DNA of 64,000 bases from Octopus sinensis. Taxonomy: Eukaryota. Shown one piece after another: positions 15,362 through 62,600 of this stretch. The stretch lies in the NCBI RefSeq assembly GCF_006345805.1, contig NC_043015.1, positions 28,520,001-28,584,000 on the forward strand, written 5' to 3'. How positions within the stretch are numbered: position 1 is the stretch's first letter; each line of letters opens with the position of its first letter. The notes beneath the pieces were generated by a model that saw only the letters and a program-made list of their open reading frames with translations, was not told where the DNA came from and did not search any database. The translations under genes and the position numbers were made by a program.

Positions 15362-15529
15362 CGTCTTAACGCTTTCCCGTCTATGTTGGAACTGTCCTGC
15401 TTGACAAACTCCTGCTGCGCATGCATTCTGCAGTCTTCCGCCCACTTCATCTATCACCAGTGCACCACTTAGCTCATCACATCCTATAACACCGACTGCC
15501 AACACCACAAAACTAGGTAGTAACCGATT

Positions 15530-15750
15530 CGCTGGCAGAAAAGTTAGCACGACGGGCGAAATGCTTAGCGGTATTTCGTCAGCGATACGTTCTGGTTCAA
15601 ATTCCGCCAAGGTCGACTTTGCCTTTTATCCTTTCGGGGTCGATAAATTAAGTACCAGTTACGCACTGGTGTCGATGTAATGGACTGAATACCTATGTCT
15701 GTCCTTGTTTGTCCCCTCTGTGTTTAGCCCCTTGTGGGTAATAAAGAAAT
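15530..15750 (+). mobile_element. SINE (also at ~29450, ~36900, ~56640)
   Basis: gctggcagaa...gttcaaattccgcc...ctttcggggtcgataaattaagtacc. Confidence 0.75.
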
Positions 15751-18863: not shown

Positions 18864-19184
18864 GTTTTGGTTTTTCTTTTCTTTTGCTCATTTTAATCTT
18901 TTATATTGTTAATGTTTTTTTCTCTCTTTTCTTTCAATTCGAATTAAAAAAACAAATTTGAATGAGTTGATGAACAAATATAAGGGAGGCAACTCTTAGC
19001 ATGCTAATATCCTTTGCGTCAGAAAAAAATTTAGTTGTTATTTTTAAGAGTCAATTTAGCCATGGTCAAGCAGACTTATGATTAAAGAGGTTCCAACAGC
19101 AATCAACCTTTCTTTTATTTTTTTTAATGTTGTGTAAAGACCACGAGCAAATTATTGAATGGTTAAAAAGGTACAATCTTCTTT

Positions 19185-19530
19185 TCAAAGACATACATCA
19201 TCTCGAAAGTGTCCAGAAGCTGGCTACCCACATGGTTCTTGGTCTCAAGCATTTGTCTTATGACGAAAGGCTGAAGACGCTCGACCTTTATTCTCTAGAA
19301 AAACGCCGCCGCCGTGGTGATCTCATTCTCGCTCACAACATCATAAGCAGAAAGTGTAACCTCTCGAAAGAGCTGTTCTACACTCCTGCACCAGAGTGTC
19401 GGCTGCGGGGTCACTCCGAAAAGCTCTATCTGCGACGAATTCATCTCAATCGAAGGAGAGGGGCTTTCCTGTCCTGGTTGCGGATCCGTGGAATAAGCTG
19501 CCGGACGAGATAGTGAAGATTCTGACGACC
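19185..19530 (+). mobile_element. CR1-clade LINE ORF2 C-terminal fragment (also at ~60160-60505)
   Basis: LESVQKLAT...LSYDERLKTLDLYSLEKRRRRGDLI...LRGH..KL...WNKLP. Confidence 0.85.
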
Positions 19531-23487: not shown

Positions 23488-24651
23488 TTATGTTGAAGGA
23501 TTTGTTACTTTACCAATGAAATGGATCATTTTAGTTCGGTTGTCAACAATTAAAAATGTGAATGGATGATTGACATCAAAATCTATACGATTTATAAAAA
23601 TTTGTGCTGACGCGAAGGTCATGACTATTCCAGTTGCAGCTGCAGCTTCCGTTCCTTCTTCATTAACATCAACAAATGCTTTATGAAACATTTCACTGGC
23701 ATAAATATTCTTCTCAGCACCAGTCATTCCAGATAAATCAGCTTTTAGAGGATCAAAAATATCAGAGAGTCCAAGCTTTTTCAAAACATCACCCAACTGA
23801 AAACTACTCTCTAAACAAAATTTTGGCATATGTAATTTTAGACACATCATTTGAAATCCTTTTCTGTCAACAATGTCTTTGAGAAATTGAGCATTAATCT
23901 CCTTCTCTAAAGCAGCAAGACCATTGATTTCATTGGGAAGAATTACAAACATACTAAATGCTTTCCCTATATAAGGTAACTCAACCACTTTATAGTTGTC
24001 ACTTATTTTTGTATTAAAACCTTCAGATAGATACATAAAATCATGAGATACAGTCTTGTCAGAGCTTAAATAAAACTTTCTAGATGATGTTGCTTTTTTT
24101 CCGAATGTTTCAGCCCACGTTCCTTTGAAGTATACAGCATTAATAAGAACTAGAACCGATTGAGGTGTCAAACTTCCACTTGGTAACAGATCAGTAATTT
24201 TGTTATTTGTGTTATTCTTAACCCAATCATTAATAGTTATTCTTGTCTTCTCAGCATTTGTTATAAAGTCTACATTTTCAATATCTGAAAAGAAATATTT
24301 TACCATGTTGTTCTTGTAGTCTTCTGAAATAGGGAATTTTTCATTGGCACACAAACGATTCACTAAATTGGATGTGACGAGTTTATCTGAGTTTTTCAAA
24401 AGTGAAAAATATTCTTTAAAAGCTAAAGCTACAGAATCTGGATTTGATGTTATCTTCAAAACATTTTCAAACTGTTTGGAAGAGTTTTGTCTTGCTCCCA
24501 AATAAACCATTGATAAAACAGTAGCAACACTGAATGGTGACATGAAGACATTTTCATTGATTCCTGTAGCCACAGCTTGATAAAGACTGTTTGTAAAATA
24601 ATCAATTGAAGCGGCAAGGTTACTGATGTCTTGTTTCTTTGCTGAGTCCAT
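23488..24651 (-). CDS. serpin copy 1, 387 aa, intact, SERPINB/leukocyte elastase inhibitor-like; RCL TGIVMTFA|SAQ
   Basis: NVFMSPFS, INDWV, NAVYFKGTW, hinge EEGTEAAAAT, FDVNHPF..LI; no signal peptide; single coding exon. Confidence 0.97.
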   Translation of the reverse strand: MDSAKKQDISNLAASIDYFTNSLYQAVATGINENVFMSPFSVATVLSMVYLGARQNSSKQFENVLKITSNPDSVALAFKEYFSLLKNSDKLVTSNLVNRLCANEKFPISEDYKNNMVKYFFSDIENVDFITNAEKTRITINDWVKNNTNNKITDLLPSGSLTPQSVLVLINAVYFKGTWAETFGKKATSSRKFYLSSDKTVSHDFMYLSEGFNTKISDNYKVVELPYIGKAFSMFVILPNEINGLAALEKEINAQFLKDIVDRKGFQMMCLKLHMPKFCLESSFQLGDVLKKLGLSDIFDPLKADLSGMTGAEKNIYASEMFHKAFVDVNEEGTEAAAATGIVMTFASAQIFINRIDFDVNHPFTFLIVDNRTKMIHFIGKVTNPST

Positions 24652-31138: not shown

Positions 31139-32299
31139 TCATGTTGTAGGATTTGTTACTTTACCAATGAAATGGATCATTTTAGTTTGGTTGTCAACAA
31201 TTAAAAATGTGAATGGGTGATTGACATCAAAATCCATAGGCATACCAAAATAGCCTGACAAATCCATCGCGAACATTCCAGTTGCAGCTGCAGCTTCCGT
31301 CCCTTCTTCATTAACTTCAACAAATGCTTTATGAAACATTTCACTGGCATAAATATTCTTCTCACCACCAGTCATTCCAGATAAATCAGCTTTTTGAGGA
31401 TCAAAAATATCAGAGAGTCCAAGCTTTATCAAAACTTCACCTAACTGAAAACTACTCTCTAAACGAAATTTTGGCATACGTAATTCTAGAAACAACCCTT
31501 CAAATCCTTTTCTGTCTATAATATCTTTGAGAAATTGAGCATTGATCTCCTTCTCTAAAGCAGCAAGACCATTGATTTCATTGGGAAGAATTACAAACAT
31601 ACTAAATGCTTTCCCTATATAACGTAACTCAACCACTTTATAGTTGTCACTTATTTTTGAATTAAAACCTTCAGATAGATACATAAAATCATGAGATACA
31701 GTCTTGTCAGAGCTTAAATAAAACTTTCTAGATGATGTTGCTCTTTCTGAGAATATTTCAGCCCACGTTCCTTTGAAGTATACAGCATTAATAAGAACTA
31801 GAACCGATTGAGGTGTCAAACTTCCACTTGGTAACAGATCAGTAATTTTGTTATTTGTGGTATTCTTAACCCAATCATTAATAGTTATTCTTGTCTTCTC
31901 AGCATTTGTTATAAAGTCTACATTTTCAATATCTGAAAAGAAATATTTTACCATGTTGTTCTTGTAGTCTTCTGAAATAGGGAATTTTTCATTGGCACAC
32001 AAACGATTCACTAAATTGGATGTGACGCGTTTATCTGAGTTTTTCAAAAGTGAAAAATATTCTTTAAAAGCTAAAGCTACAGAATCTGGATTTGATGTTA
32101 TCTTCAAAACATTTTCAAACTGTTTGGCAGAGTTTTGTCTTGCTCCCAAATAAACCATTGATAAAACAGTAGCAACACTGAATGGTGACATGAAGACATT
32201 TTCATTGATTCCTGTAGCCACAGCTTGATAAAGACTGTTTGTAAAATAATCAATTGAAGCAGCAAGGTTACTGATGTCTTGTTTCTTTGCTGAGTCCAT
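31139..32299 (-). CDS. serpin copy 2, 386 aa, intact; RCL TGMFAMDL|SGY
   Basis: same scaffold motifs as copy 1. Confidence 0.97.
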   Translation of the reverse strand: MDSAKKQDISNLAASIDYFTNSLYQAVATGINENVFMSPFSVATVLSMVYLGARQNSAKQFENVLKITSNPDSVALAFKEYFSLLKNSDKRVTSNLVNRLCANEKFPISEDYKNNMVKYFFSDIENVDFITNAEKTRITINDWVKNTTNNKITDLLPSGSLTPQSVLVLINAVYFKGTWAEIFSERATSSRKFYLSSDKTVSHDFMYLSEGFNSKISDNYKVVELRYIGKAFSMFVILPNEINGLAALEKEINAQFLKDIIDRKGFEGLFLELRMPKFRLESSFQLGEVLIKLGLSDIFDPQKADLSGMTGGEKNIYASEMFHKAFVEVNEEGTEAAAATGMFAMDLSGYFGMPMDFDVNHPFTFLIVDNQTKMIHFIGKVTNPTT

Positions 32300-33689: not shown

Positions 33690-34727
33690 AATTGTGTTGA
33701 AAACTGCCGTTCAAAAGAAATAGATCCTCCTTTTCTAATTGAAACCATTTTTCTGCAAGGCCTTCCACATGACCATATCACGCCATCCGACAAATTTTTT
33801 TTGGCTACATCCTTCAAGGAACATTTCTAGAGAATAGTAAGTTAAAGTGCGAGCAGATTATTGATATTTTATATTATTGGGCAAAAGAAGATTTAGCAAA
33901 GGGAATAGCCCAGGAATGCCGTATAGATTGGAGAAATTTTTGCTGTGATATATGTGCAGAATATTATGTTGCACAAAACATTAAGCTCGGAGGGCCAAAC
34001 TGAATTGTAGAGATAGATGAAAGAGCGTTTGTTAGAAGAAAATATAATGTTGGCCATCAGGTTAAAACGCAGTGGGTTTTTGGTGCTTTGGAAAGGGATA
34101 CTAGAAGATGGTATTTGGTGGCAGTGGAAGATCGGACTGCGGACACTCTTTTAGAAATTATACAAGAGCGTATATAGCCTGGTACAACTGTAATTTCTAA
34201 CCTCTGGCGTTCGTATAATACGCTCAATCAGCTAGGATATAGGCATTTGACTGTGAATCATCATCATCATCATCATCATCGTTTAACGTCCGTTCTCCAT
34301 GCTAGCATGGGTTGGACGGTTCGACCGGGGTTCTGGGAAGCCAGAAGGCTGCACCAGGCTCCAGTCTAATCTGGCAATGTTTCTACAGCTGGATGCCCTT
34401 CCTAACGCCAACCACTCCGTGAGTGTAGTGGGTGCTTTTTACGTGCCACCTGCACAGGTGCCAGGCGAGGCTGGCAACGGCCACGGTCAGATTGGTGTAT
34501 TTTATGTGCCACCGGCAATAAATTTTGTTGATCCGGTAACATTTGCCACAACCAACCACATAGAATGTTTATGGAAGCATGTAAAGAATCGTAACAAAAG
34601 AGAAAATGGAACAGCCCGAAATTTACTTCAATCCCATCTCATTGAATTCATGTGGCATTATGAATTTAAGGACGAAATCTTTGGAAAGTTATTGGAACAA
34701 ATTCAACATCTATACCCATGCATTTGA
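33690..34727 (+). pseudogene. Merlin-like transposase pseudogene with SINE insertion
   Basis: paralogue of 13360-14399. Confidence 0.85.
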
Positions 34728-36484: not shown

Positions 36485-37772
36485 CCATTGGCTCCTGAAA
36501 GTTATGAGGGAAAAAATCGGATTGTGTGAATTTTCCGAAAGTCCTCTCCTCCTCTCCGTTTCGTTTACGCAAATTTTGTTTTCCAGATTCGTTAACTTTT
36601 TTCTTCTTGTTCTGGTGGCCGGGTATTAAACTTGTAGTGTGATGGATGAAGAAGACAACAGAAAAAGAAGCAACGGGAGAAAGAAATACAAAAGGCCTTA
36701 CCTCTTCGAAATCAGCGGTCTCTTTCACGAATTCTACACGTCTTATCGCTTTCCCGTCTATGTTGGAACTGTCCTGCTTGACAAACTCCTGCTGCGCATG
36801 CATTCTGCAGTCTTCCGCCCACTTCATCTATCACCAGTGCACCACTTAGCTCATCACATCCTATAACACCGACTGCCAACACCACAAAACTAGGGAGTAA
36901 CCGATTCGCTGGCAGAAAAGTTAGCACGACGGGCGAAATGCTTAGCGGTATTTCGTCAGCGATACGTTCTGGGTTCAAATTCCGCCAAGGTCGACTTTGC
37001 CTTTTATCCTTTCGGGGTCGATAAATTAAGTACCAGTTACGCACTGGTGTCGATGTAATGGACTGAATACCTATGTCTGTCCTTGTTTGTCCCCTCTGTG
37101 TTTAGCCCCTTGTGGGTAATAAAGAAATAGCTATCCCAGACACTCCTATTAGATTGATACAGAAATTAACCGTTTTCTTATTTTTCAAGGTAGGATATGA
37201 TTTTAGGAAGATTTGGCTGGTCTATTGACCACGTAGGGGTTTTCTCTTTGACTCATATCTAGATTTTGATGTCAGCCAAGTTTTTTAAAGAATGAAAGTT
37301 TTCGAAAATGAACACGCTAATAATAAATAATTTCCATTATTTTATTTCATACAAAAACATTCGGTTAATGTGAATAACTTGTCTTATTTTATCTAAAAAG
37401 ACGAAGTGAAAAAAAAAAAAGAATTTAATCTGCTACATGGTGAAGTTTTGCCGTGATTTGACTTTCAAATAATGCATGACAAAACTATGGAATGTCGTCG
37501 ATAATGAAGAGACTTTGCGAGGAAAGTTCGAGCGACGTGGCAATGAATGTGAAGTAATTAGTATGTCGAGTTTCGTTCCTTGCTGATAGAGTTAAAATGG
37601 GAGAAACATTTTTGTTTTAAAATTTCTATAGCGCAAAATAGAAGTTAACTGCAGCATAAAGTAGAAAAGAAGTTCTGCCGACGACCACGTAGACTGCAGT
37701 TGACTCCAGAATGTGTACGGTAGACTAATTAACGATCTCGGCGTATAATGTGTGATGAACCAGAAATAATAA

Positions 37773-42338: not shown

Positions 42339-42514
42339 CAAAATCGCAAAATACCTTAGGAATGAGAGCCCAGGTTCGAAATTTCCCCAAGACACCTGAT
42401 GAAGGCTGGAGGGTATATCAGCTGAATCATTGTGTTAATAACAAACAAGATGAGGACAAATATCCATCAATTGTAAATAATGTATTTAATTCCTCATCTC
42501 TTAAATATAGAACT
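41383..42514. mobile_element. Penelope-like remnant with inverted terminal segments
   Basis: ~130 bp inverted repeats 41390-41520/42350-42482 containing cacctgatgaa; direct repeat aaattaaaact on both flanks; (AAT)n, (CAT)n and SINE pieces inside. Confidence 0.55.
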
Positions 42515-42697
42515 AAATTAAAACTATTCTTATAATCTTTCATTGCATAGATATGTCCATGGTTCTGCACAATTACAACTATAATGGTTTAAGTCATTCT
42601 ACTCAAAAATATTGTAAATGGATTTGCTGAGTTACGTTGTCTACATAATACAATCTAGTATCCCATAAGAGAAAAATCTTTGACAAGACAATATCAT

Positions 42698-42873
42698 CTA
42701 TATCGTGGGGTTTGTTACTTTACCAATGAAATGGATCATTTTAGTTCGGTCATCAACAACTAAAAACGTGAATGGGTGATTGACATCAAATTGCATCCCA
42801 ATTCTCGACATATAATTTGAGACCACCATTCCACTTGCAGCAGCAGCTTCCGTTCCTTCGTATATAGTCGTAT
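42698..42873 (-). pseudogene. serpin copy 3: orphan acceptor + hinge/RCL/C-terminus cassette
   Basis: ttctccag|atacgactatatac joined in frame to GAAGGAACG (EGTEAAAASGMVVSNYMSRIGMQFDVNHPF...KVTNPTI*); ATG and ~1 kb of scaffold deleted. Confidence 0.9.
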
Positions 42874-42929
42874 CTGGAGAATATAGAATATGAAGAGAAA
42901 ATATACAAAATAAATTTGTATAAACATTT

Positions 42930-43235
42930 GAGGCTACTGACCAGATCTCTAGATGGTGCAAAGTTCCCTTTCATCCCAAGGTAACATGGTGGTGGAACAA
43001 TGTAGTTGACAGGGTCATTAGGGAAAAGAAACAGGCATGGAAAGACTGGAAGAACAGTGGTAGCAGGGAATTGTATCAGATCGCCAGAAGGGAAACTAGG
43101 AGACAGGTTTACTTAGTCAGAGGGGAAGCAGATAAGAAAAAAATTTGTCAATGTTCTGTGTCGTGAGGACCAAAGACTTAAAGTGTTTTGTGTTGCAAGA
43201 CAGTGTGTGAGAGAGAATCATGATGTTATAGGAGA
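42930..43235 (+). mobile_element. RTE-clade LINE ORF2 fragment
   Basis: translates to TWWWNNVVDRVIREKKQAWKDWK. Confidence 0.7.
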
Positions 43236-43321
43236 GACATACACACACACAAATACATGCATGCATGTACACGTACACACACACACATACACACTCATGC
43301 ATGCATATTTTTATTATGAGT

Positions 43322-44126
43322 TACTCTCTCTTTTACTCTTTTACTTGTTTCAGTCATTTGACTGCGGCCATGCTGGAGCACCGCCTTTAGTCGAGCAAAT
43401 CGACCCCGGGAATTATTCTTTGTATGCCCAGTACTTATTCTATCAGTCTCTTTTTGCCGAACCGCTAAGTGACGGGGACGTAAACACACCAGCATCGGTT
43501 GTCAAGCAATGCTAGGTGGACAAACACAGACACACAAACATATACACACACATACATATATACGACAGGCTTCTTTCAGTTTCCGTCTACCAAATCCACC
43601 CACAAGGCATTGGTCGGCCCGGGGCTATAGCAGAAGACACTTGCCCAACCCGGAACCATGTGCTTGGTTAGCAAGCTACTTACCACACAGCCACTCTGCG
43701 CCTATATAAATATTTCTGTATAAATATTTCAAAATGTTGAGTTAGTATGAAGGACATTGAGTAATTCTGCTTCAAAAAAATTAGATGAAAAACAAAACAA
43801 GAATAAAATAACTTGTTGGATTTATGAATGTTAAAAATCTCCAAACAATTATCAGATAATAGATGAACTGAGAACAATGGAATATTAGGCGTAGGAGTGG
43901 CTGTGTGGTAAGTAGCTTGTTAACCAACCACATGGTTCCAGGTTCATCCCACTGTGTGGCATCTTGGGCAAATGTCTTCTGCTATAGCCCCGGGCCGACC
44001 AATGCTGTGTGAGTGGATTTGGTAGACGGAAACTGAAAGAAGCCTGTCGTATATATATATGTATGTGTGTGTTTGTGTGTCTGTGTTTGTCCCCCTAGCA
44101 TTGCTTGACAACCGATGCTGGTGTGT
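43322..44126. mobile_element. two head-to-head SINEs (43322-43703 -, 43886-44126 + truncated)
   Basis: same family as 3197-3592; the second is cut off at the junction with the serpin-4 3' flank. Confidence 0.8.
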
Positions 44127-44664
44127 AAAAGTTTTGTAATGCCACAATTATTGAAACAATGTAATTATTTTATCAAGATCCAAGACATAATTACGAAGGG
44201 TGAACACGGGGGCTTAAAAATTTCGAATGTCTAAATTTAAAACAAAGAATATAAAAGCCAGATGCAATCAACACATACAAAATAATGGAATATTTACTGA
44301 GATACTTTATTAATATGAAGCATACAAATATTGATTTCACTTCATTCAACCAGAAAATAACGTTTACAGGCAACAGTAGATATATTGTTAAAATAGTAAA
44401 CTTGCAAAGAAAGGATACTTTAAAAAGTGTCAAAATTTTCTGTCAATGTATGGCATATACAAATTCATAATATTGATTTAGATTAATGTGGTATTATAAT
44501 ATATCATTGAATAGATATGACCTTGGTTCTACACAATTACAATTATGATGTCCTAAGTCATTTTACTAAAAAAACCATTCTAAATAAATTTGTTCAGTTA
44601 CATTCTCCACATAATACAATGTAGTATTCCCTAAGAGGGAAATCTTTGACAGGGCAATATCATC

Positions 44665-45818
44665 TCATGTTGTAGGATCTGTTACTTTACCAATGAAATG
44701 GATCATTTTAGTTCGGTCATCAACAACTAAAAACGTGAATGGGTGATTGACATCAAATTGCATCCCAATTCTCGACATATAATTTGAGACCACCATTCCA
44801 CTTGCAGCAGCAGCTTCCGTTCCTTCTTCATTAACATCAACAAATGCTTTATGAAACATTTCACTGGCATAAATATTCTTCTCACCACCAGTCATCCCAG
44901 ATAAATCAGCTTTTAGAGGATCAAAAATATCAGGGAGTCCAAGCTTTTTCAAAACATCACCCAACTTAAAACTACTCTCTAATGAAATTTTGGCATATTT
45001 AATTCTAGAAGCATCATTTTAAATCCTTTTCTGTCAACAATGTCTTTGAGAAATTGAGCATTAATCTCCTTCTCTAAAGCAGCAAGGCCATTGATTTCAT
45101 TGGGAAGAATTACAAACATACTAAATGCTTTTCCTATATAAGGTAACTCAACCACTTTATAGTTGTCGCTTATTTTGGTATTAAAATCTTCAGATATATA
45201 CATAAAATCATGAGATACAGTCTTGTCAGAGCTTAAATAAAACTTTCTAGATGAAGTTGCTTCTTCTGAGAATATTTCAGCCCACGTTCCTTTGAAGTAT
45301 ACAGCATTAATAAGAACTAGAACCGATTGAGGTGTCAAACTTCCACTTGGTAACAGATCAGTAATTTTGTTATTTGTGTTATTCTTAACCCAATCATTAA
45401 TAGTTATTCTTGTCTTCTCAGCATTTGTCATAAAGTCTACATTTTCAATATCTGAAAAGAAATATTTTACCATGTTTTTCTTGTAGTCTTCTGAAATAGG
45501 GAATTTTTCATTGGCACACAAACGATTCACTAAATTGGATGTGACAAGTTTATCTGAGTTTTTCAAAAGTGAAAAATATTCTTTAAAAGCTAAAGCTACA
45601 GAATCTGGATTTGATGTTATCTTCAAAACATTTTCAAACTGTTTGGAAGAGTTTTGTCTTGCTCCCAAATAAACCATTGATAAAACAGTAGCAACACTGA
45701 ATGGTGACATGAAGACATTTTCATTGATTCCTGTAGCCACAGCTTGATAAAGACTGTTTGTAAAATAATCAATTGAAGCAGCAAGGTTACTGATGTCTTG
45801 TTTCTTTGCTGAGTCCAT
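44665..45818 (-). pseudogene. serpin copy 4, full length with one -1 frameshift (~44981); RCL SGMVVSNY|MSR
   Basis: 1154 nt; plus strand ctctaatgaaa versus ctctaaacgaaa in intact copies; may be an assembly indel. Confidence 0.85.
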
Positions 45819-46410
45819 ATTGTATACGATAGTATCTGGAGAATATAGAATATGAAGAGAAAATATACAGAATAAATTCTTGCAAACATTTCAAAATATT
45901 TTATTAGACATTACTGTAATTAGAGACATCTATAAAAGCAAAGTCTGAAATCTCTTCTGATCAAACTCTAATTTTAACTTTTACATGAACATATTTCTTA
46001 ACATAACACAGAGTTAATGTGTTTTAAACAGTTTTTAAAATAATTAAAAATTTATATGATTAATTAATATAACCATTTTTTTCTCCAATATTTATCTGAT
46101 ATTTGGCACATATCTTAAAAGTTTCATTTATAAGATGATGTTGGAACTTAACCATGTTTGCATTTCAAAGACAAATTTGAATGGAGCAGGTTTAGTTTTC
46201 ATTTTTTGCATATATGGTAAGATAAGGTATCAAGTACAATGATATACTCCACCTGCTGAGAGCCTGGTCAAATACTTGCAACAAAATGACATCCTCAAAA
46301 AAGGCCTTAATGTGCCTGGAGGTGATGTTGAACTAATTAGTGTAATACCAAGCTAGACCGGATCCTGTAAACCTAGACTCAATGGTTAATATTTAGTTTG
46401 TAGAATGACC

Positions 46411-46689
46411 TGTGGGATGACGTCAGCAGCTGGGTGCGTTGACCGGAAGCTGGGGCAACCGGAAGGGGCTGCTGTCAGGCGTGCGCAGGCAGCAGTCAAT
46501 TGGGCCTTTCCAACGTGGGTCGTCCAAATGACAAGACGTGTGAGGATGGTGGCGAAGGGTCTGGGTGAGCAGCTGCTATCTTTAGTGTTCGGGTTGGAGC
46601 TGTGTCGAAGGATTAGCTACCACAGAAGGGTCTCCATCACGAGGAAGAGAAGGTAGGTGCCTTTATATTCAAATCGTGCACACACCACA
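46411..46689. mobile_element. solo-LTR-like insertion (copy)
   Basis: TGTGG...CCACA, TSD TGACC. Confidence 0.85.
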
Positions 46690-47343
46690 TGACCGTGTGA
46701 AGGAGAGGTGACGAGAATGTCTCCTTTAGTACGCCGCACGGTCGATTACAATAAATAGGAAAAAGGATGAATGAGTATGAATGCCAGCAGGAAAAGAGAG
46801 ACACAACCAGTAGAATGTTTAAGAGAAAGATTTTATTGATAGGTTAACATGTGTGTCTGTGTGTGTGTCATGTATATATAATAATAGACAGGCCGTCATG
46901 TATACATAATGTGTGTGCAGAAACGTGGATGTATGCGTGTGCGATAAGTACAGAGCATTAAAAGAGTCTATAATAGGACGTTAGAAGAATGCAATGCAGA
47001 GCCAGTTGAGGCACATGTCATGCGTGAAGCTGTGGCTACTATGCAGAGCCGGTTACTTGGTACAGAAGGTTCTCGCAGGTTGTATTTGCTGTCAACCATG
47101 GTGAAATAATTCATGAACAGTGTTGAGTAGAGGCCATTGATTGGTTAAAATCTGAAAAATTAAACTACGTTAAACTTACAAATTACAATTTTCTCAAGAG
47201 AGCCAGAAATTGTGTTGAAAACTGCCGTTCAAAAGGAATAGATCCTCCTTTTCTAATTGAAACCATTTTTCTGCAAGGCCTTCCACATGACCATATCACG
47301 CCATCCGACAAATTTTTTTTGGCTACATCCTTCAAGGAACATT

Positions 47344-47726
47344 TCTACATTTTCAATATCTGAAAAGAAATATTTTACCATGTTGTTCTTGTAGTCTTCT
47401 GAAATAGGGAATTTTTCACTGGCATACAAACGATTCACTGAATTGAATGTGACGAGTTTATCTGAGTTTTTCAAAAGTGAAAAATATTCTTTAAAAGCCA
47501 AAGCTACAGAATCTGGATTTGATGTTATCTTCAAAACATTTTCAAACTGTTTGGCAGAGTTTTGTCTTGCTCCCAAATAAACCATTGATAAAACAGTAGC
47601 AACACTGAATGGTGACATGAAGACATTTTCATTGGTTCCTGTAGCCACAGCTTGATAAAGACTGTTTGTAAAATAATCAATTGAAGCAGCAAGGTTACCG
47701 ATGTCTTGTTTCTCTGCTGAGTCCAT
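47344..47726 (-). pseudogene. serpin copy 5, N-terminal third only, fused to Merlin sequence
   Basis: MDSAEKQDIGN...SDIENV then Merlin-unit sequence; tcta microhomology at 47344-47347. Confidence 0.9.
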
Positions 47727-48271
47727 ATCGTATACGATAGTGTCTAGAGAATATAGAATATGAAAAGAAAATATACAAAATAAATTCTGGCAAACATTTC
47801 AGTATATTGTAGAAGACATCTATGAAAGCAATGTCTGAAATCTCTTCTGTTCAAACTTTAAATTTAACTTTTACATGAACATATTTTGTACGGTAACACT
47901 CAATATGATTTAAATAGATTTTAAAATAATTAAAAATTTATAAGATTTAATAATATAACCATTTCTTTCTTCCATTCTTTATGTGGCTTTTGGCACATAC
48001 CTTAAAATGATGTTGAAATGTTTTAGCTTAAATACGGTGATTATTTACAAAATAGATTTGAACATTATGTATCACATTTAGAATACAGTTAGGAAACAAT
48101 AAAATTTGGGTTTTTGCATAAATCATTTCAGACCATTTTCATACAGAATTCTTAGATCACATTAGTGTGTTTTACACTCTCTTGAAATATTGAACAGGAA
48201 CTGTTTTTCAGGAAATTCTTTTGCATTTCATCTCTTCATATTGTATATTCTTTAGATGCCACGGAAATAAT

Positions 48272-49304
48272 ATGGACTAAGCAAAGAAACAAGACTTCGG
48301 TAACCTCGCTGCTTCAGTTGATTATTGTACAAAGAGTCTTTTTCAAGCTGTGTCTACAGGAACCGTTGAAAATGTTTTCATGTCACCATTCAATGTTGCT
48401 ACCGTTTTATCAATGGTTTATTCTGGAGCAAGACAAAACTCTGCCAAACAATTGAAAATATTTTGAAAATAACTTTAAATACAGATCCTGTAATTTGAGG
48501 TTTTAAAGAATATTTTTCACTTTTGAAACACTCAGATGAACTTATTGCATTGAATTCAGTCAATTGTTTTAGTGCCAATGAAAAATTTCGTATTTCAGAA
48601 GACTAAAAGAACATTATTGCAAAAAATTTCTTTTCAGATATTGAAAATGTAGACTTCATGACAAATATTGGAAAAGGAAGAATTAATATTAATTACAATG
48701 TTGTAAGACAACAAGATGCTAGAATTGTTAGTATGCTGGGCAAAATACTTAGTAGCAATTTGTCCATCTTGACATTCTGGAGTTGACATTGTCATCCTTT
48801 AGGGTTTGACAAAATAAGTACCAATTGAGCACTTGTGTTGCTGTAATTGATTTACCCCTACAATTAAATTGCTGGCCTTGCACCAAAATTTGAAAGCAGT
48901 TTTAATGATTGTGCTGAAAATAACACAAATAACATAATTACCGATCTCCTAACAATTTGAAGTTGACACCTCAGTCGGTTCTAGTTCTTATTAATGCTGT
49001 GTACTTGAAAAGAATATGGCATAAAATATTCCTATAAAAAGCAACATCATCTAGAAAGACAATTTTAGCACAAAAATAAGCAACAGCTCTACAGTTGTTG
49101 AGTTACCTTATATAGGAAAAGCATTTAGTATGTTTGTAATTCTTCCCAATGAAATCAATGGCCTTAATGCTTTAGTGAAGGAGATTAATGCTCAATTTCT
49201 CAAAGATATTGTAGACAGAAAAGGGATTTGAAATGATGCTTCTAGAATTAAATATGCCAAAATTTCGTTTAGAGAGTAGTTTTAAGTTGGGTGATGTTTT
49301 GAAA
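48272..49304 (+). pseudogene. serpin copy 6, inverted and decayed
   Basis: atggactaagcaaag start with stop, many stops and indels, SINE at ~48700-48895, internal deletion; ends at ...FKLGDVLK without an RCL. Confidence 0.9.
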
Positions 49305-51936: not shown

Positions 51937-53100
51937 TTATGTTGTAGGATTTGTTACTTTACCAATGAAATGGATCATTTTAGTTCGGTTGTCAACAATT
52001 AAAAATGTGAATGGGTGATTGACATCAAAATCCAAGGGATTTATAACAAGTCTTCCTTTACATGGCACTAAGCGGGCCTTAGTTGCAGCTGCAGCTTCCG
52101 TTCCTTCTTCATTAACTTCAACAAATGCTTTATGAAACATTTCATTGGCATAAATATTCTTCTCACCACCAGTCATTCCAGATAAATCAGCTTTTAGAGG
52201 ATCAAAAATATCAGAGAGTCCAAGCTTTTTCAAAACTTCACCCAACTGAAAACTACTCTCTAAACGAAATTTTGGCATATGTAATACTAGAAGCATCATT
52301 TTAAATCCTTTTCTATCTATAATATCTTTGAGAAATTGAGCATTAATCTCCTTCTCTAAAGCAGCAAGACCATTGATTTCATTGGGAAGAATTACAAACA
52401 TACTAAATGCTTTCCCTATATAAGGTAACTCAACCACTTTATAGTTGTCGCTTATTTTTGTATTAAAATCTTCAAATTTAAACATAAAATCATGAGATAC
52501 AGTCTTGTCAGAGCTTAAATAAAACTTTCTAGATGATGTTGCTTTTTTTCCGAATGTTTCAGCCCACGTTCCTTTGAAGTATACAGCATTGATAAGAACT
52601 ACAACCGATTGAGGTGTCAAACTTCCACTTGGTAACAGATCAGTAATTTTGTTATTTGTGTTATTCTTTACCCAGTCATTAATAGTAATTCTTGTCTTCT
52701 CAGCATTTGTTATGAAGTCTACATTTTCAATATCTGAAAAGAAATATTTTACCATGTTGTTCTTGTAGTCTTCAGAAATAGGGAATTTTTCATTGGCGCA
52801 CAAACGATTCACTAAATTGGATGTGACAAGTTTATCTGAGTTTTTCAAAAGTGAAAAATATTCTTTAAAAGCCAAAGCTACAGAATCTGGATTAGAAGTT
52901 ATCTTCAAAACATTTTCAAACTGTTTGGCAGAGTTTTGTCTTGCTCCCAAATAAACCATTGATAAAACAGTAGCAACACTGAATGGTGACATGAAGACAT
53001 TTTCATTGGTTCCTGTAGCCACAGCTTGATAAAGACTGTTTGTAAAATAATCAATTGAAGCAGCAAGGTTACCGATGTCTTGTTTCTTTGCTGAGTCCAT
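51937..53100 (-). CDS. serpin copy 7, 387 aa, intact; RCL TKARLVPC|KGR
   Basis: same scaffold; start taken at MDSAKK because the ATG at 53148 lies upstream of the conserved acceptor. Confidence 0.97.
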   Translation of the reverse strand: MDSAKKQDIGNLAASIDYFTNSLYQAVATGTNENVFMSPFSVATVLSMVYLGARQNSAKQFENVLKITSNPDSVALAFKEYFSLLKNSDKLVTSNLVNRLCANEKFPISEDYKNNMVKYFFSDIENVDFITNAEKTRITINDWVKNNTNNKITDLLPSGSLTPQSVVVLINAVYFKGTWAETFGKKATSSRKFYLSSDKTVSHDFMFKFEDFNTKISDNYKVVELPYIGKAFSMFVILPNEINGLAALEKEINAQFLKDIIDRKGFKMMLLVLHMPKFRLESSFQLGEVLKKLGLSDIFDPLKADLSGMTGGEKNIYANEMFHKAFVEVNEEGTEAAAATKARLVPCKGRLVINPLDFDVNHPFTFLIVDNRTKMIHFIGKVTNPTT

Positions 53101-54186: not shown

Positions 54187-57100
54187 TCAATGGTCAATAT
54201 TTAGTTTGTAGAATGACCGTGTGAAGGAGAGGTGACGAGAATGGCTCCTTTAGTACGCCGCACGGTCAATTACAATAAATAGGAAAAAGGATGAATGAGT
54301 ATGAATGCCAGCAGGAAAAGAGAGACACAACCAGTCGAATGTTGAAGAGAAAGATTTTATTGATAGGTTAACATGTGTGTCTGTGTGTGTGTCATGTATA
54401 CATAATAATAGACAGGCCGTCATGTATACATAATGTGTGTGCAGAAACGTGGATGTATGCGTGTGCGATAAGTACAGAGCATTGAAAGAGTCTATAATAG
54501 GACGTTAGAAGAATGCAATGCAGAGCCAGTTGAGGCACGTGTCATGCGTGAAGCTGTGGCTACTATGCAGAGCCGGTAACTTGGTACAGAAGGTTCTCGC
54601 AGGTTGTATCTGCTGTTAACCATGGTGAAATAATTCATGAACAGTGTTGAGTAGAGGCCATTGATTGGTTAAAATCTGAAAAATTAAACTACGTTAAACT
54701 TACAAATGACAATTTTCTCAAGAAAGCCAAGAGAAAAAATGTTTTATTTTGACACATTCTACCAGTATACGAAGTTTAAAAGTGTTTAGTTAACTAGAAA
54801 TTGTGTTGAAAACTGCCGTTCAAAAGGAAAAGATCCTCCTTTTCTAATTGAAACCATTTTTCTGCAAGGCCTTCCACATGACCATATCATGCCATCCGAC
54901 AAATTTTTTTTGGCTACATCCTTCAAGGAACATTTCTAGAGAATAGTAAGTTGAAGTGTGAGCAGATTATTGATATTTTATATTATTGGGCAAAAGAAGA
55001 TTTAGCAAAGGGAATAGCCCAGGAATGCTGTATATACTGGAGAAATTTTTGCTGTGATATATGTGCAGAATATTATGTTGCACAAAACATTAAGCTCGGA
55101 GGGCCAAACCGAATTGTAGAGATAGATGAAAGCGCGTTTGTTAGAAGAAAATATAATGTTGGCCATCAGGTTAAAATGCAGTGGGTTTTTGGTGCTTTGG
55201 AAAGGGATACTAGAAGATGGTTTTTGGTGGCAGTGGATGATCAGACTGCGGACACTCTTTTAGAAATTATACAAGAGCGTATATAGCCTGGTACAACTGT
55301 AATTTCTGACCTCTGGCGTTCGTATAATACGCTCAATCACCTAGGATATAGGCATTTGACTGTGAATCATTCAATAAATTTTGTTGATCCGGTAACATTT
55401 GCCACAACCAACCACATAGAATGTTTATGGAAGCATGTAAAGAATCGCAACAAAAGAGAAAATGGAACAGCCCGAAATTTACTTCAATCCCATCTCATTG
55501 AATTCATGTGGCGTTATAAATTTAAGGACGAAATCTTTGGAAAGTTATTGGAACAAATTCAACATCTATACCCATGCATTTGAAACGTTACAGAATAGAA
55601 GTATCTACAAAGCATTTGTTTTATATTTCGTTAAATTCTTTCAGTTGAAAATTATATTTTTATATTCTAAATAATTTGCAATTTCAGAAAATATATTAAC
55701 TTTGCGTTTTTTAATTTGATAAATTCTACGGAAACAAACAAGTGACGTCAGATTGAAGTCACACTTTCTTTTACTTTCCTCCTGACAGCTAATTCCGTAG
55801 TGGTGCCTGTAACAGGATGTAGCGCAACTACGTGCTCTTTTGTTTTCTTACACACACGCCGCCTCAATTCAGGTGGGGTAAACATTTAAAATAACATTTT
55901 TTTGTTGATGCTCGTATCCCACCAATGGAGCACGCATGTGGCCCATTGGTATCATCATTAAAGGGGATGAGGAGTAAAAAAAAAAAAATCATAAGTTTTC
56001 CAAACCATTTTTTCATAACAAGATGTTTCCCATCATTTCGAAGGTTGTGGTGAAAAACAATCGCGAAAACCCTGTCAAAAGGGAGAAATTCCAACTTATG
56101 TGGTCTTCTTGATCGGAAGCTCCTCTCCCTGCTCCTTAAAAATTTTTCCCCAAAAAATTTCTTTATAATCTTAATCCATGCCGTTTGAAATGTATTTATA
56201 TAAAATTTCACTAAAAGATATCCATTTTCCTGAAAGTTATGAGGGAAAAAATCGGATTGTGTGAATTTTGCGAAAGTCCTCTCCTCATCCCCGTTTCGTT
56301 TGCGCAAATTTTGTTTTCCAGATTCGTTAACGTTTTTCTTCTTGTTCTGGTGGCCGGGTATTAAACTTGTAGTGTGATGGATGAAGAAGACAACAGAAAA
56401 AGAAGCAACGGGAGAAAGAATAACTAAAGGCCTTACCTTTTCGAAATCAGCGGTCTCTTTCACGAATTCTACACGTCTTATCGCTTTCCCGTCTATGTTG
56501 GAACTGTCCTGCTTGACAAACTCCTGCTGCGCATGCATTCTGCAGTCTTCCGCCCACTTCATCTATCACCAGTGCACCACTTAGCTCATCACATCCTATA
56601 ACACCGACTGCCAACACCACAAAACTAGGTAGTAACCGATTCGCTGGCAGAAAAGTTAGCACGACGGGCGAAATGCTTAGCGGTATTTCCTCAGCGATAC
56701 GTTGTTAGTTCAAATTCCGCCGAGGTCGACTTTGCCTTTCATCCTTTCGGGGTCGATAAATTAAGTACCAGTTACGCACTGGAGTCGATGTAATGGACTG
56801 AATACCTATGTCTGTCCTTGTTTGTCCCCTCTGTGTTTAGCCCCTTGTGGGTAATAAAGAAATAGGTATCCCAGACACTCCTATTAGATTGATACAGAAA
56901 TTTAACCGTTTTCTTATTTTTTAAGGTAGGATATGATTTTAGGAAGATTTGGCTGGTCTATTGACCACGTAGGGTTTTTCTCTTTGACTCATATCTAGAC
57001 TTTGATGTCAGCCAAGCTTTTTAAAGAATGGAAGTTTTCGAAAATGAACACGTTAATAATAAATAATTTCCATTATTTTATTTCATACAAAAACATTCGG

Positions 57101-59663: not shown

Positions 59664-62600
59664 CATATATACGACAGGCTTCTTTCAGTTTCCGTCTACC
59701 AAATCCACTCACAAGGCTTTGGTTGGCCCGGGGCTATAGTAGAAGACACTTGTCCAAGTGGCCTCGCAGTGGGACTGAGCCCGGAACCATGTGGTTGGTA
59801 AGCAAGCTACTTACCACACAGCCACTCCTGCGCCTGTTTTGGTTTTTCTTTTCTTTTGCTCATTTTAATCTTTTATATTGTTAATGTTTTTTTCTCTCTT
59901 TTCTTTCAATTCGAATTAAAAAAACAAATTTGAATGAGTTGATGAACAAATATAAGGGAGGCAACTCTTAGCATGCTAATATCCTTTGCGTCAGAAAAAA
60001 ATTTAGTTGTTATTTTTAAGAGTCAATTTAGCCATGGTCAAGCAGACTTATGATTAAAGAGGTTCCAACAGCAATCAACCTTTCTTTTATTTTTTTTAAT
60101 GTTGTGTAAAGACCACGAGCAAATTATTGAATGGTTAAAAAGGTACAATCTTCTTTTCCAAAGACATACATCATCTCGAAAGTGTCCAGAAGCTGGCTAC
60201 CCACATGGTTCTTGGTCTCAAGCATTTGTCTTATGACGAAAGGCTGAAGACGCTCGACCTTTATTCTCTAGAAAAACGCCGCCGCCGTGGTGATCTCATT
60301 CTCGCTCACAACATCATAAGCAGAAAGTGTAACCTCTCGAAAGAGCTGTTCTACACTCCTGCACCAGAGTGTCGGCTGCGGGGTCACTCCGAAAAGCTCT
60401 ATCTGCGACGAATTCATCTCAATCGAAGGAGAGGGGCTTTCTCTGTCCTGGTTGCGGATCCGTGGAATAAGCTGCCGGACGAGATAGTGAAGATTCTGAC
60501 GACCACATATATACGGCAGGCTCCATTCAGTTTCCGTCTACCAAATCCACTCACAAGGCATTGGTCGGCCCGAGGCTATAGCAGAAGACACTTACCCAAG
60601 ATGCCACGCCGTGGGACTGAACCCGGAACCATGTGGTTGGTTAGCAAGCTACTTACCACACAGCCACTCCTGCACCTATACAGACACGTGTGTGTGTGTG
60701 TGTATATACACACGTGTTACACACATGTGTGTAACTTATAAGATTGACTGATTACAGTAATTTATGGCTGCTTTATATTGTTTTAACTTACAAGGCATCC
60801 ATTAACCATTTCTATATTATTTTTTATGTAGAAATAAAAGCCATTCTTCCTTCTCTTCAAAAATATCTATGCCATTTAAACTTTCCTGTCAGCAAAGAGC
60901 ATTTTGGTGCTAAGTTGAAAATACATTCTCAGACCATGTTTTCTATGAATTTATTTTAGTTGTTAAGATGTATATTATGTCACTTTATCTATGAGGTCTG
61001 ATCAAAAAATATCAGAACTTGTGCTATAAAAAGAAAACTATAACACAAATCAATTCAGCATTTAATCGCCTTCAAAGTAATCCTGTTCTAAAGACACACA
61101 CTTTATCCAGTGCCGTTTCCATTAATGGAAGTATTCTTGGAACTTTTTTTTTGGGGGGGGGGGGACAGTGAGCAGTTGCCGCATTGCATTCTCTTAGATT
61201 TCCATGATGTCTTGAAATCTTGTTCAAATGGAATTTGATTTTTGACTTGCTTTTGGAGTCACAGCCAAAAGACCCATGATTTATCACCTCTTATAACTGT
61301 TTTCAAAAGTTTTCGTCTTCCTCAACACAATCAAGGAGATCCTGCACATTTGAAACTTGACCCTTTTTTTTGAGATGACCACACTCTACACACTTTACTT
61401 CCAAGCATTGTTATAAACAACAGAAGTGTGCATGCGGGACAGGGTTCAAGGTGAATTTTCCAAGTGGCTTCATTGTAGATAACTCAGCAACAGCCCAATC
61501 CTTTTTGATCAGACCTTGTATTATAATAATTCTATTCACATTCACAATGCATTCATTATAAGAATGAATATCCCTATAATCACACCAGTATTTGACTGCT
61601 AATCTATTTCATTGATTTTGTAAAGGTAAAAGATATTATTGAACCAATTGTGTATCATACTTAATGTCTGAGACTCCCTTCGGTCACGACACAGACCATG
61701 AGATTGCACCAAGAAAGTTACTCTCCCAGGCACAAGTCCGGGCAAGTTTGCTTATGGAAGACCAGCAGTCACCCATGCATACCAGCCTCCCCTCTCCACA
61801 CCACTGATGTTATCCAAGGGAAAGGCAAAGGGGCCAATACAGCTTGGCACCTGTGACATCGCAACTCATTTCTCCAGCTGAGTGAACTGGAGCAACATGA
61901 AATAAAGTGTCTTGCTCAAGAACACAACACGCAGCCCGGTCCGGCATTTGAACTCACAACCTCACGATTGTAATCTCTACACTCTAACCACTAAGCCATG
62001 CACCTTCACATAATTAATGTAAATACATCACAAAAGATTGATTTACTGCTGTGCATATCTCAAATTATTTTATCTCATAAGAACACGCTGCATTAAAAAA
62101 TACAATATATATATCGAAGGCAGACGAAAATTGTTCTAGTTGCAAAGTGGTAAGTATGCTAGATGCATTTCTGCCTTATTTAAGAAGGTGCATGGCTCAG
62201 TGGTTAGGGCGTCGAGCTTTCGATCGTGAGGTTGTGAGTTCGAATCCCGGACCGGGCTGCGTGTTGTGTTCTTGAGCAAGACACTTAATTTCACGTTGCT
62301 CCAGTTCACTCAGCTGTAGAAATGAGTTGCGACGTCACAGGTGCCAAGCTGTATCGGCGCCTTTGCCTTTCCCTTGGCTATGAGTATGTGCCATTGACAA
62401 TGTAGCAGCACAAGCAGTCAGCGCCATATTGGATGAGATCTCACGGCAGCCATTGCCATCTCCGAGACGGGAGCGAGACCTCACCTGCATCCATTTGCCA
62501 TGCGTAAGATCACAACGAGGCTCGTGATAGAAAACTATATAAAGGGAAAACCCTCTTCAAATCTCTCTTCTTTGGCGCCGCTACACACCAGCGCTTGCTG

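Follow-up and report, generated by a model that had tools for sequence, protein, structure and literature searches.

How did two serpin exons of one tandem array in Octopus sinensis come to carry the same reactive centre loop (RCL) between different flanks? The exons, an internally deleted "orphan" and a serpin copy referred to as copy 4, lie in the window, i.e. the whole 64,000-nucleotide stretch of DNA that was analysed (G000:C19:28520001-28584000), to which we added the next 180 kb, with "reg" coordinates continuing the window numbering. A genome-wide protein search yielded 62 matches, mostly in reg 23-216 kb, and the window serpins match NCBI proteins labelled Octopus sinensis leukocyte elastase inhibitor(-like). 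The present assembly holds about 25 serpin copies in 200 kb, of lineages D, B and A, a copy number left unsure by an inverted block past an N gap (reg 181089-212555) that is 99.3-99.8% like window 20.7-54.1 kb and is possibly an uncollapsed second haplotype. For comparison, 25 units were cut from the array together with one chr1 gene and given names that combine type and position in kb: A (copies 1 and 2 of the window, A_64k, A_116k and others), c6, B, D (131-146k and 215k) and copy-4-type (44k, 98k and 187k). More distant single-exon-domain serpins were also seen outside the array, at C1:23609604-23610752 (77%) and C19:48.85-48.87 Mb (43-62%). The serpin exons of the window discussed below are as follows.

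23488..24651, minus strand: copy 1, an intact A-type serpin exon
31139..32299, minus strand: copy 2, an intact A-type serpin exon
42698..42873, minus strand: the orphan, a B-lineage serpin terminal exon with an in-frame internal deletion of 996 bp, as seen at the junction against intact B_127k
44665..45835, minus strand: copy 4 serpin exon (acceptor 45835, ATG 45818, 1-bp deletion near 44982)
48205..49304, plus strand: an old inverted serpin pseudogene, 77-84% to copy 4
51937..53100, minus strand: copy 6, an intact serpin exon with a third RCL type

With a cut-off of 27 bits, Pfam PF00079 (Serpin) scored 368.6 for B, 363.9 for copy 2, 114.5 for the tail of copy 4 and 46.9 for the orphan. All intact copies carry the hinge EEGTEAAAA(S/T), which aligns with the antithrombin hinge and has small residues as in inhibitory serpins; by this hinge criterion the intact copies of the array are putative inhibitory serpins. 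P1 of the B loop is presumably Tyr, by an ungapped count from the hinge, and B would be expected to favour proteases of the chymotrypsin type. No Pfam match was found for the six non-serpin frames tested. In the region upstream of A-type units, 54882-55286 and 34287-34727 (plus strand) carry putative pieces of a Merlin/ISXO2-type transposase, judged from a motif, and 60139-60741 and 19082-19513 (plus strand) are similar to the tail of a non-LTR reverse transcriptase; the frames at 54882-55286, 34287-34727 and 60139-60741 had no Pfam match.

Comparison of the orphan with copy 4 revealed an exact identity of 147 bp at an offset of 1967 (42713-42859 = 44680-44826) that spans the hinge, the RCL and the motif FLVVDDR, in agreement with the preliminary description, which had put this identity at about 145 bp. 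The match stops at the last codons, where similarity had been said to drop, and the sequences beyond it belong to different types.

42713..42859, minus strand: orphan half of the 147-bp identical stretch (exact match)
42530..42712, minus strand: B-type 3' flank of the orphan, about 20% off all A/D-type copies and 98% like two full-length B copies
44127..44679, minus strand: last codons and 3' flank of copy 4, A-type (copy-2-like), with 18/19 A/D-informative rows A-type from CDS 1153 on

Among the six non-copy-4-type copies tested, copy 2 was closest to copy 4 over 552 bp of the 3' flank, with 12 mismatches; D_131k had 76 over the same length. In this flank copy 4 and copy 2 differ at 3/114 and 1/103 sites, as against 21/111 and 25/103 sites between copy 4 and B_127k, which is of the orphan's lineage. 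The description of the copy 4 flank as copy-2-like and of the orphan flank as diverged is thus confirmed, and plain duplication, which was to have spoken against a transfer, is ruled out since the flanks of the two copies are not identical. The 5' end of the 147-bp match is the deletion breakpoint of the orphan and not the end of a tract.

The deletion in the orphan spans from 14 nt past the splice acceptor to the hinge, with a 2-nt GA microhomology at its junction. The orphan keeps the acceptor (AG at 42875-42874), which is an ordinary start-of-domain acceptor, the 14 nt of exon start, the hinge, the RCL, the C-terminus and the stop; its frame of 57 codons is open and covers Pfam Serpin positions 320-370, and 50/50 residues are identical to a piece of the O. 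vulgaris protein CAI9736908.1. Searching the genome with the orphan identified two full-length relatives, B_127k and B_96k, which match its 3' part at 98% and its 5' flank at 96%. B_127k is intact (G000:C19:28647016-28648164, about 84 kb from the orphan) and identical to XP_029647969.1. B_96k, which has a 1-bp indel, shows 9 mismatches to intact B in ~1780 bp and 25 to the orphan; being nearer to intact B, it does not date the deletion. The orphan had been taken for a special RCL cassette; it is instead a B copy with an internal deletion, in a lineage that still has an intact member 34 My old. All four B-lineage copies keep the loop, and reciprocal products may have been lost.

Intact B_127k allowed the limits of the B-derived sequence in copy 4 to be set.

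44680..44895, minus strand: maximal B-derived tract of copy 4, with all 216 bp (CDS 925-1140) matching intact B_127k
44718-44791, minus strand: minimal B-derived tract in copy 4 (CDS 1029-1102), 14 sites

The 14 sites of the minimal tract are common only to B and the copy-4-type copies when set against 13 other copies, and the stretches on either side of this core hold no informative site, so that the tract measures 74-216 bp. Next to the 216-bp identity, copy 4 differs from B at 5/123 sites just upstream and 21/111 just downstream. Copy-4-type copies are D-like to CDS 1011 and A-like from CDS 1153, and copy 4 of the window is A-type to about CDS 732 and copy-4-type from about CDS 799. Copy 4 is a three-way mosaic, consisting of a D- or A-type 5' part, a B loop and an A-type 3' flank. 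Segment trees, built without A_76k, A_83k, D_137k, c6b, the orphans, the pseudogene and the inverted A and c6 copies, grouped copy 4 with B for the tract and with the A/D types for the 3' flank. Of the 66 pairs formed by 12 non-redundant copies, B and the copy-4-type had the longest run of polymorphic sites at which both agree, 50, a length found in 0/4000 permutations, which speaks against chance; this test ignores rate variation, and 10 of the 66 pairs passed Bonferroni correction, mostly because private flank sites of B make other pairs look alike. Perfect identity of the tract was also considered as a sign of recent or repeated conversion and was rejected: the orphan and intact B differ at 29 of ~1790 flank sites, from which ~2.4 differences are expected per 147 bp and zero has p ~0.09. 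Variable sites beside the loop number 7/94 and 3/36, vs 131/924 in the body; the flanking stretches are only modestly more conserved than the body, and we do not propose a special recombination box beside the loop.

Most probably, ectopic recombination in the germline put the 74-216-bp B patch into copy 4, a broken serpin exon, before O. sinensis and O. vulgaris split. Its age is indicated by CAI9736908.1, a predicted O. vulgaris protein that strings together six exons and is known here at the protein level. In order, it carries the D_131k orthologue, B, another copy, a copy-4-type piece, the orphan and an A type; its B exon matches that of the array at 96.1% over 382 aa and its copy-4-type piece at 99.5% over 184 aa, the latter continuing with the frameshift-specific KYAKISLESS and the B loop. 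Given that the same copies are found in this protein, transfer, frameshift and deletion predate the split of the two species, which PMC10700109 puts at about 2.5 My in the part that we cite. Being common to two species, the loop transfer is old and of the germline, and not somatic in haemocytes. The O. vulgaris model also bears on assembly or polishing cross-talk, the second circumstance that was to speak against a transfer. The region does have homopolymer indels (A_83k carries six, each of a single base) and probably a duplicate haplotype, but it is hardly credible that cross-talk made the stretches identical, since the loop is present in three copy-4-type copies, one of them with a private change inside the tract, and the model of an independent species has the same copies.

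The direction of the transfer had been thought impossible to fix from the window. With the private sites and a loop orthologue in O. bimaculoides, transfer from B to copy 4 can be inferred with high confidence. Compared with nine other copies of the array, the B loop is different at 23-35 of 85 sites, and the copy-4-type has 9 private sites in ~1435 bp, B having 30 in 210 bp of 3' flank; with so few private sites, the loop is too divergent to have arisen on the short branch of copy 4. In O. bimaculoides, which according to the cited part of PMC10700109 split off about 34 My ago, the orthologous loop GMVVTNYMLRIGMQF is paired with the end NPTI, as in B, and a D-type loop with IPTT. Copy 4 of O. 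sinensis pairs the B loop with DPTT. The end NPTI is also found on the chr1 gene and on a second O. bimaculoides copy; as an ancestral end it marks B as old and is not B-specific, and it thus supports the direction without proving it. FLVVDDR is absent from the O. bimaculoides orthologue. The reverse course, in which the loop would have originated on the scaffold of copy 4 before being copied into B, is very unlikely. B does receive tracts, as its body is homogenised with D types (0 differences from D_146k at 25 polymorphic sites, CDS 809-1018), but the O. bimaculoides orthologue already pairs the loop with NPTI and the private sites of the copy-4-type are too few for this loop to have evolved there. 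The donor is a B copy, either intact or already deleted, these being indistinguishable at every site of the tract.

In the proposed transfer from B, copy 4 would have gained the bait loop and the next 40 bases from the neighbouring B copy, between non-B flanks, and the patch would end within well-conserved stretches on either side of the loop. As expected of gene conversion, the tract is identical to one paralogue and both flanks are not; the flanks do not, however, come from one recipient lineage, being D-type upstream and A-type downstream. The different lineages of the 5' and 3' sides of copy 4 imply at least two events, and a double crossover fits them too. Gene conversion in the strict sense is not proven for copy 4. 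Hence, of the proposal that a short conversion tract moved an RCL, the movement of an RCL tract from an old lineage to a different scaffold stands, and its assignment to conversion does not, a double crossover giving the same shape. Two successive unequal crossovers, joining D into B upstream of the loop and B into A downstream, would give the same direction and outcome with no conversion, and we regard them as a possible, if rather doubtful, course. They agree with the change of the copy-4-type from D-like sequence up to CDS 1011 to A-like sequence from CDS 1153 and with the many segmental duplications and hybrid junctions in the array, but would need one expansion and one contraction to explain that copy 4 keeps its D position just upstream of a B copy (the orphan or B_96k) in 3/3 occurrences and in the O. 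vulgaris model. Since a B copy is still directly downstream of copy 4, a non-crossover patch, by gene conversion or template switch, appears somewhat likelier than two crossovers. The loop transfer is one visible event of a general patchwork exchange in the array.

All three copy-4-type copies lack one base at CDS 837 (codon 280) and two of them have TGA at codon 179; as the frameshift lies upstream of the loop, the copies seen make no working new inhibitor. In the window the copy-4-type gene is further split, into copy 5 and copy 4, by an A-type insert of ~1.9 kb net (45020-47347) that replaces the codon-179 stop region.

47344..48007, minus strand: copy 5, D-type 5' portion originally belonging to the copy-4-type gene (99.8% identical to the inverted copy of that type)

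Copy 5 is cut by the insert at about codon 131, with a 4-nt TAGA microhomology at the junction. The copy-4-type gene of the inverted block is without the insert, which is either a later rearrangement or a misjoin. Contigs of 4 of the 24 listed runs (X9, X11, X16 and X18) were analysed over 42480-46100; the RNA status of these runs is guessed, none being on record as RNA, and contigs of 31-letter words cannot join the copy 4 loop to its 3' flank across a shared 36-bp stretch. At the copy 4 frameshift nearly all of the depth in the listed contigs carries the extra base, which does not imply silence. Likewise, neither copy-4-type transcripts nor an orphan-specific splice were evident in the listed contigs of the four runs, and neither result is a sign of silence; depth over the orphan in X9 may stem from the conserved tail of any paralogue. 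Neither short proteins with a leader nor a protein of the orphan's size turned up in searches.

Pseudogene-templated diversification is known from chicken immunoglobulin, Trypanosoma VSG and Borrelia vlsE, and the octopus locus resembles these systems in that a truncated copy adjoins a fuller copy and the variable part is common to both. The preliminary description had drawn this parallel, in which the deleted orphan would be a template from which working scaffolds receive their loops, much as chicken immunoglobulin genes do by conversion. Its position (2 kb from copy 4, and next after the copy-4-type piece in the O. vulgaris model) suits such a role, its deletion endpoint (CDS 994) falls within the allowed 5' boundary of the tract (925-1028), and B_96k leaves the deletion undated. 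Nevertheless, the template role is unlikely and is not needed: an intact and conserved B copy has the same loop, the recipient carries the frameshift in 3/3 copies and in the O. vulgaris model, and a single orphan type exists genome-wide (2 near-identical copies among 40 scored matches), which makes no donor library. Moreover, the event is common to two species; unlike the templated systems, the octopus case is an old germline event in a broken recipient.

The array into which the loop was transferred has an architecture of its own. Each of the 26 units opens with a splice acceptor whose frame fits a phase-1 exon upstream. The entire minus-strand array is preceded by a signal-peptide-like exon of 23 codons (reg 159455-159523; G000:C19:28679455-28679523, minus strand), whose putative signal function was judged from its make-up. 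This exon has two matches genome-wide, one for the main array and one that is the leader of D_215k. RefSeq isoform X1 joins this leader to D_146k, 12 kb away, and X3 joins it to B, 31 kb away and past five acceptors, with no other known first exon between leader and B; one leader exon likely serves several downstream coding exons. Similarly, one leader is common to two serpin bodies in O. bimaculoides. These joins rest on RefSeq models, which can mix paralogues, as XP_036367074.1 and XP_036367082.1 fuse the first part of one copy with the last part of its neighbour, reflecting either misaligned reads or hybrid genes in other animals. No leader join was found among the loose ends listed for the run contigs, where the single readable join was to the other first exon. 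From these gene models, the D- and B-type exons are likely alternative last exons of one signal-peptide exon and would give predicted secreted forms.

A single leader for all copies was considered and rejected, since the first exon found joined to an A-type acceptor is another one.

36702..36870, minus strand: leaderless exon upstream of A-type units (3' part), with donor GT after 36702

The donor ends of this leaderless exon in the window are at about 29247, 36702 and about 56437, and six more copies lie in reg 69-204 kb. The nine copies in 244 kb, none of them between leader and B, serve A-type and c6 units; a tenth match is partial (252 bp, window 15362-15612), the intron-side end of the searched stretch lying in a high-copy repeat. 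A loose end in run X11 joins the end of the leaderless exon to an A-type acceptor out of frame with the serpin, so that A types would start at their own Met, without a signal. The A-type units with their own leaderless first exon are therefore likely to encode predicted cytosolic forms.

Analysis of 10 intact copies revealed 0.633 amino-acid-changing vs 0.035 silent differences per codon pair in loop codons 340-353, 0.196 vs 0.013 in codons 261-290 and 0.053 vs 0.047 in codons 1-170. Diversifying change acts strongly on the loops of the array. O. sinensis and O. vulgaris have five D/B loops in common, each without a difference, and 0/4 O. vulgaris A-type loops match any O. sinensis loop. A loose end of run X9 at window 44792 carries a loop variant, TTFLSGRIF, that is like a mix of A_64k and A_116k and whose differences from A_64k are all amino-acid-changing; its pattern has no match in the assembly, which suggests a loop polymorphism between animals. 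A_64k itself (reg about 64.6 kb) has a hinge end like that of B and D_215k, AAAAS, before an A-type loop, and this hinge is a possible micro-tract. One tentative reading of the array, to which we give rather little weight, is a split repertoire. In it the leader would pick among at least six whole-serpin last exons with stable, secreted loops, the leaderless units would turn their loops over between sister species, ectopic recombination would carry loops from scaffold to scaffold frequently enough to yield new working inhibitors in populations, and the orphan, in-frame in two species, could join the leader as a secreted loop-only peptide.

Gene conversion together with selection has been proposed for hypervariable inhibitor reactive centres (Ohta 2010 review, PMC3966226, citing Hill & Hastie 1987 and Ohta 1994), and in the cited part of that review exchange as a driver of loop diversity is argued from substitution patterns. 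The octopus array is like such families in being tandem, with non-allelic exchange and loop codon differences that are mostly amino-acid-changing; it differs from the cases cited there in that a loop was traced whole, over 74-216 bp, to a named donor lineage with an outgroup, and in that the recipient is broken. The tandem SERPINA1/SERPINA3 clusters of rodents likewise have divergent loops, with recombination breakpoints in SERPINA3-like genes (PMC12646145, as far as cited here). Those clusters are treated as separate genes, whereas in octopus the tandem duplicates with divergent loops each have the domain in one exon and several likely have a common first exon. Insect serpin-1 genes use alternative RCL exons, as in Manduca (as cited in PMC3966226), and Pteromalus PpSerpin-1 has 2 N-terminal and 21 C-terminal forms (PMC10513286, in the part cited). 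As in these insect genes, one octopus locus is predicted to give many loops in secreted and leaderless forms. Insects, however, splice a common body to a short loop exon at the hinge, while the octopus alternative unit is the whole serpin domain, the intact copies being single open frames through the hinge. The sections of PMC4136820 considered here make no mention of conversion or chimeras. An O. vulgaris "Serpin B10" is up with Aggregata infection (PMC5736919, in the part cited). A literature search, with subscription journals outside its coverage, found no paper on the octopus serpin array.

Together, the data indicate that the loop transfer into copy 4 is real and polarised, with a dead product, and is a new example of a known process; the likely layout of whole domains with a shared leader is the less familiar part and is less firmly shown than the transfer. 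Since the loop sets the target protease of a serpin, no change retargets it faster than the exchange of the entire loop, and copy 4 records a polarised, dated and bounded exchange of this kind, which is modest on its own because the product is dead. More promising is the array itself, an inhibitor locus of a cephalopod in which a common signal exon is likely, D/B loops are the same in O. sinensis and O. vulgaris, A-type loops differ between these species, and an expressed-looking loop variant is missing from the assembly. Whether the defence repertoires of invertebrates are fed by loop shuffling can be tested directly on this locus.
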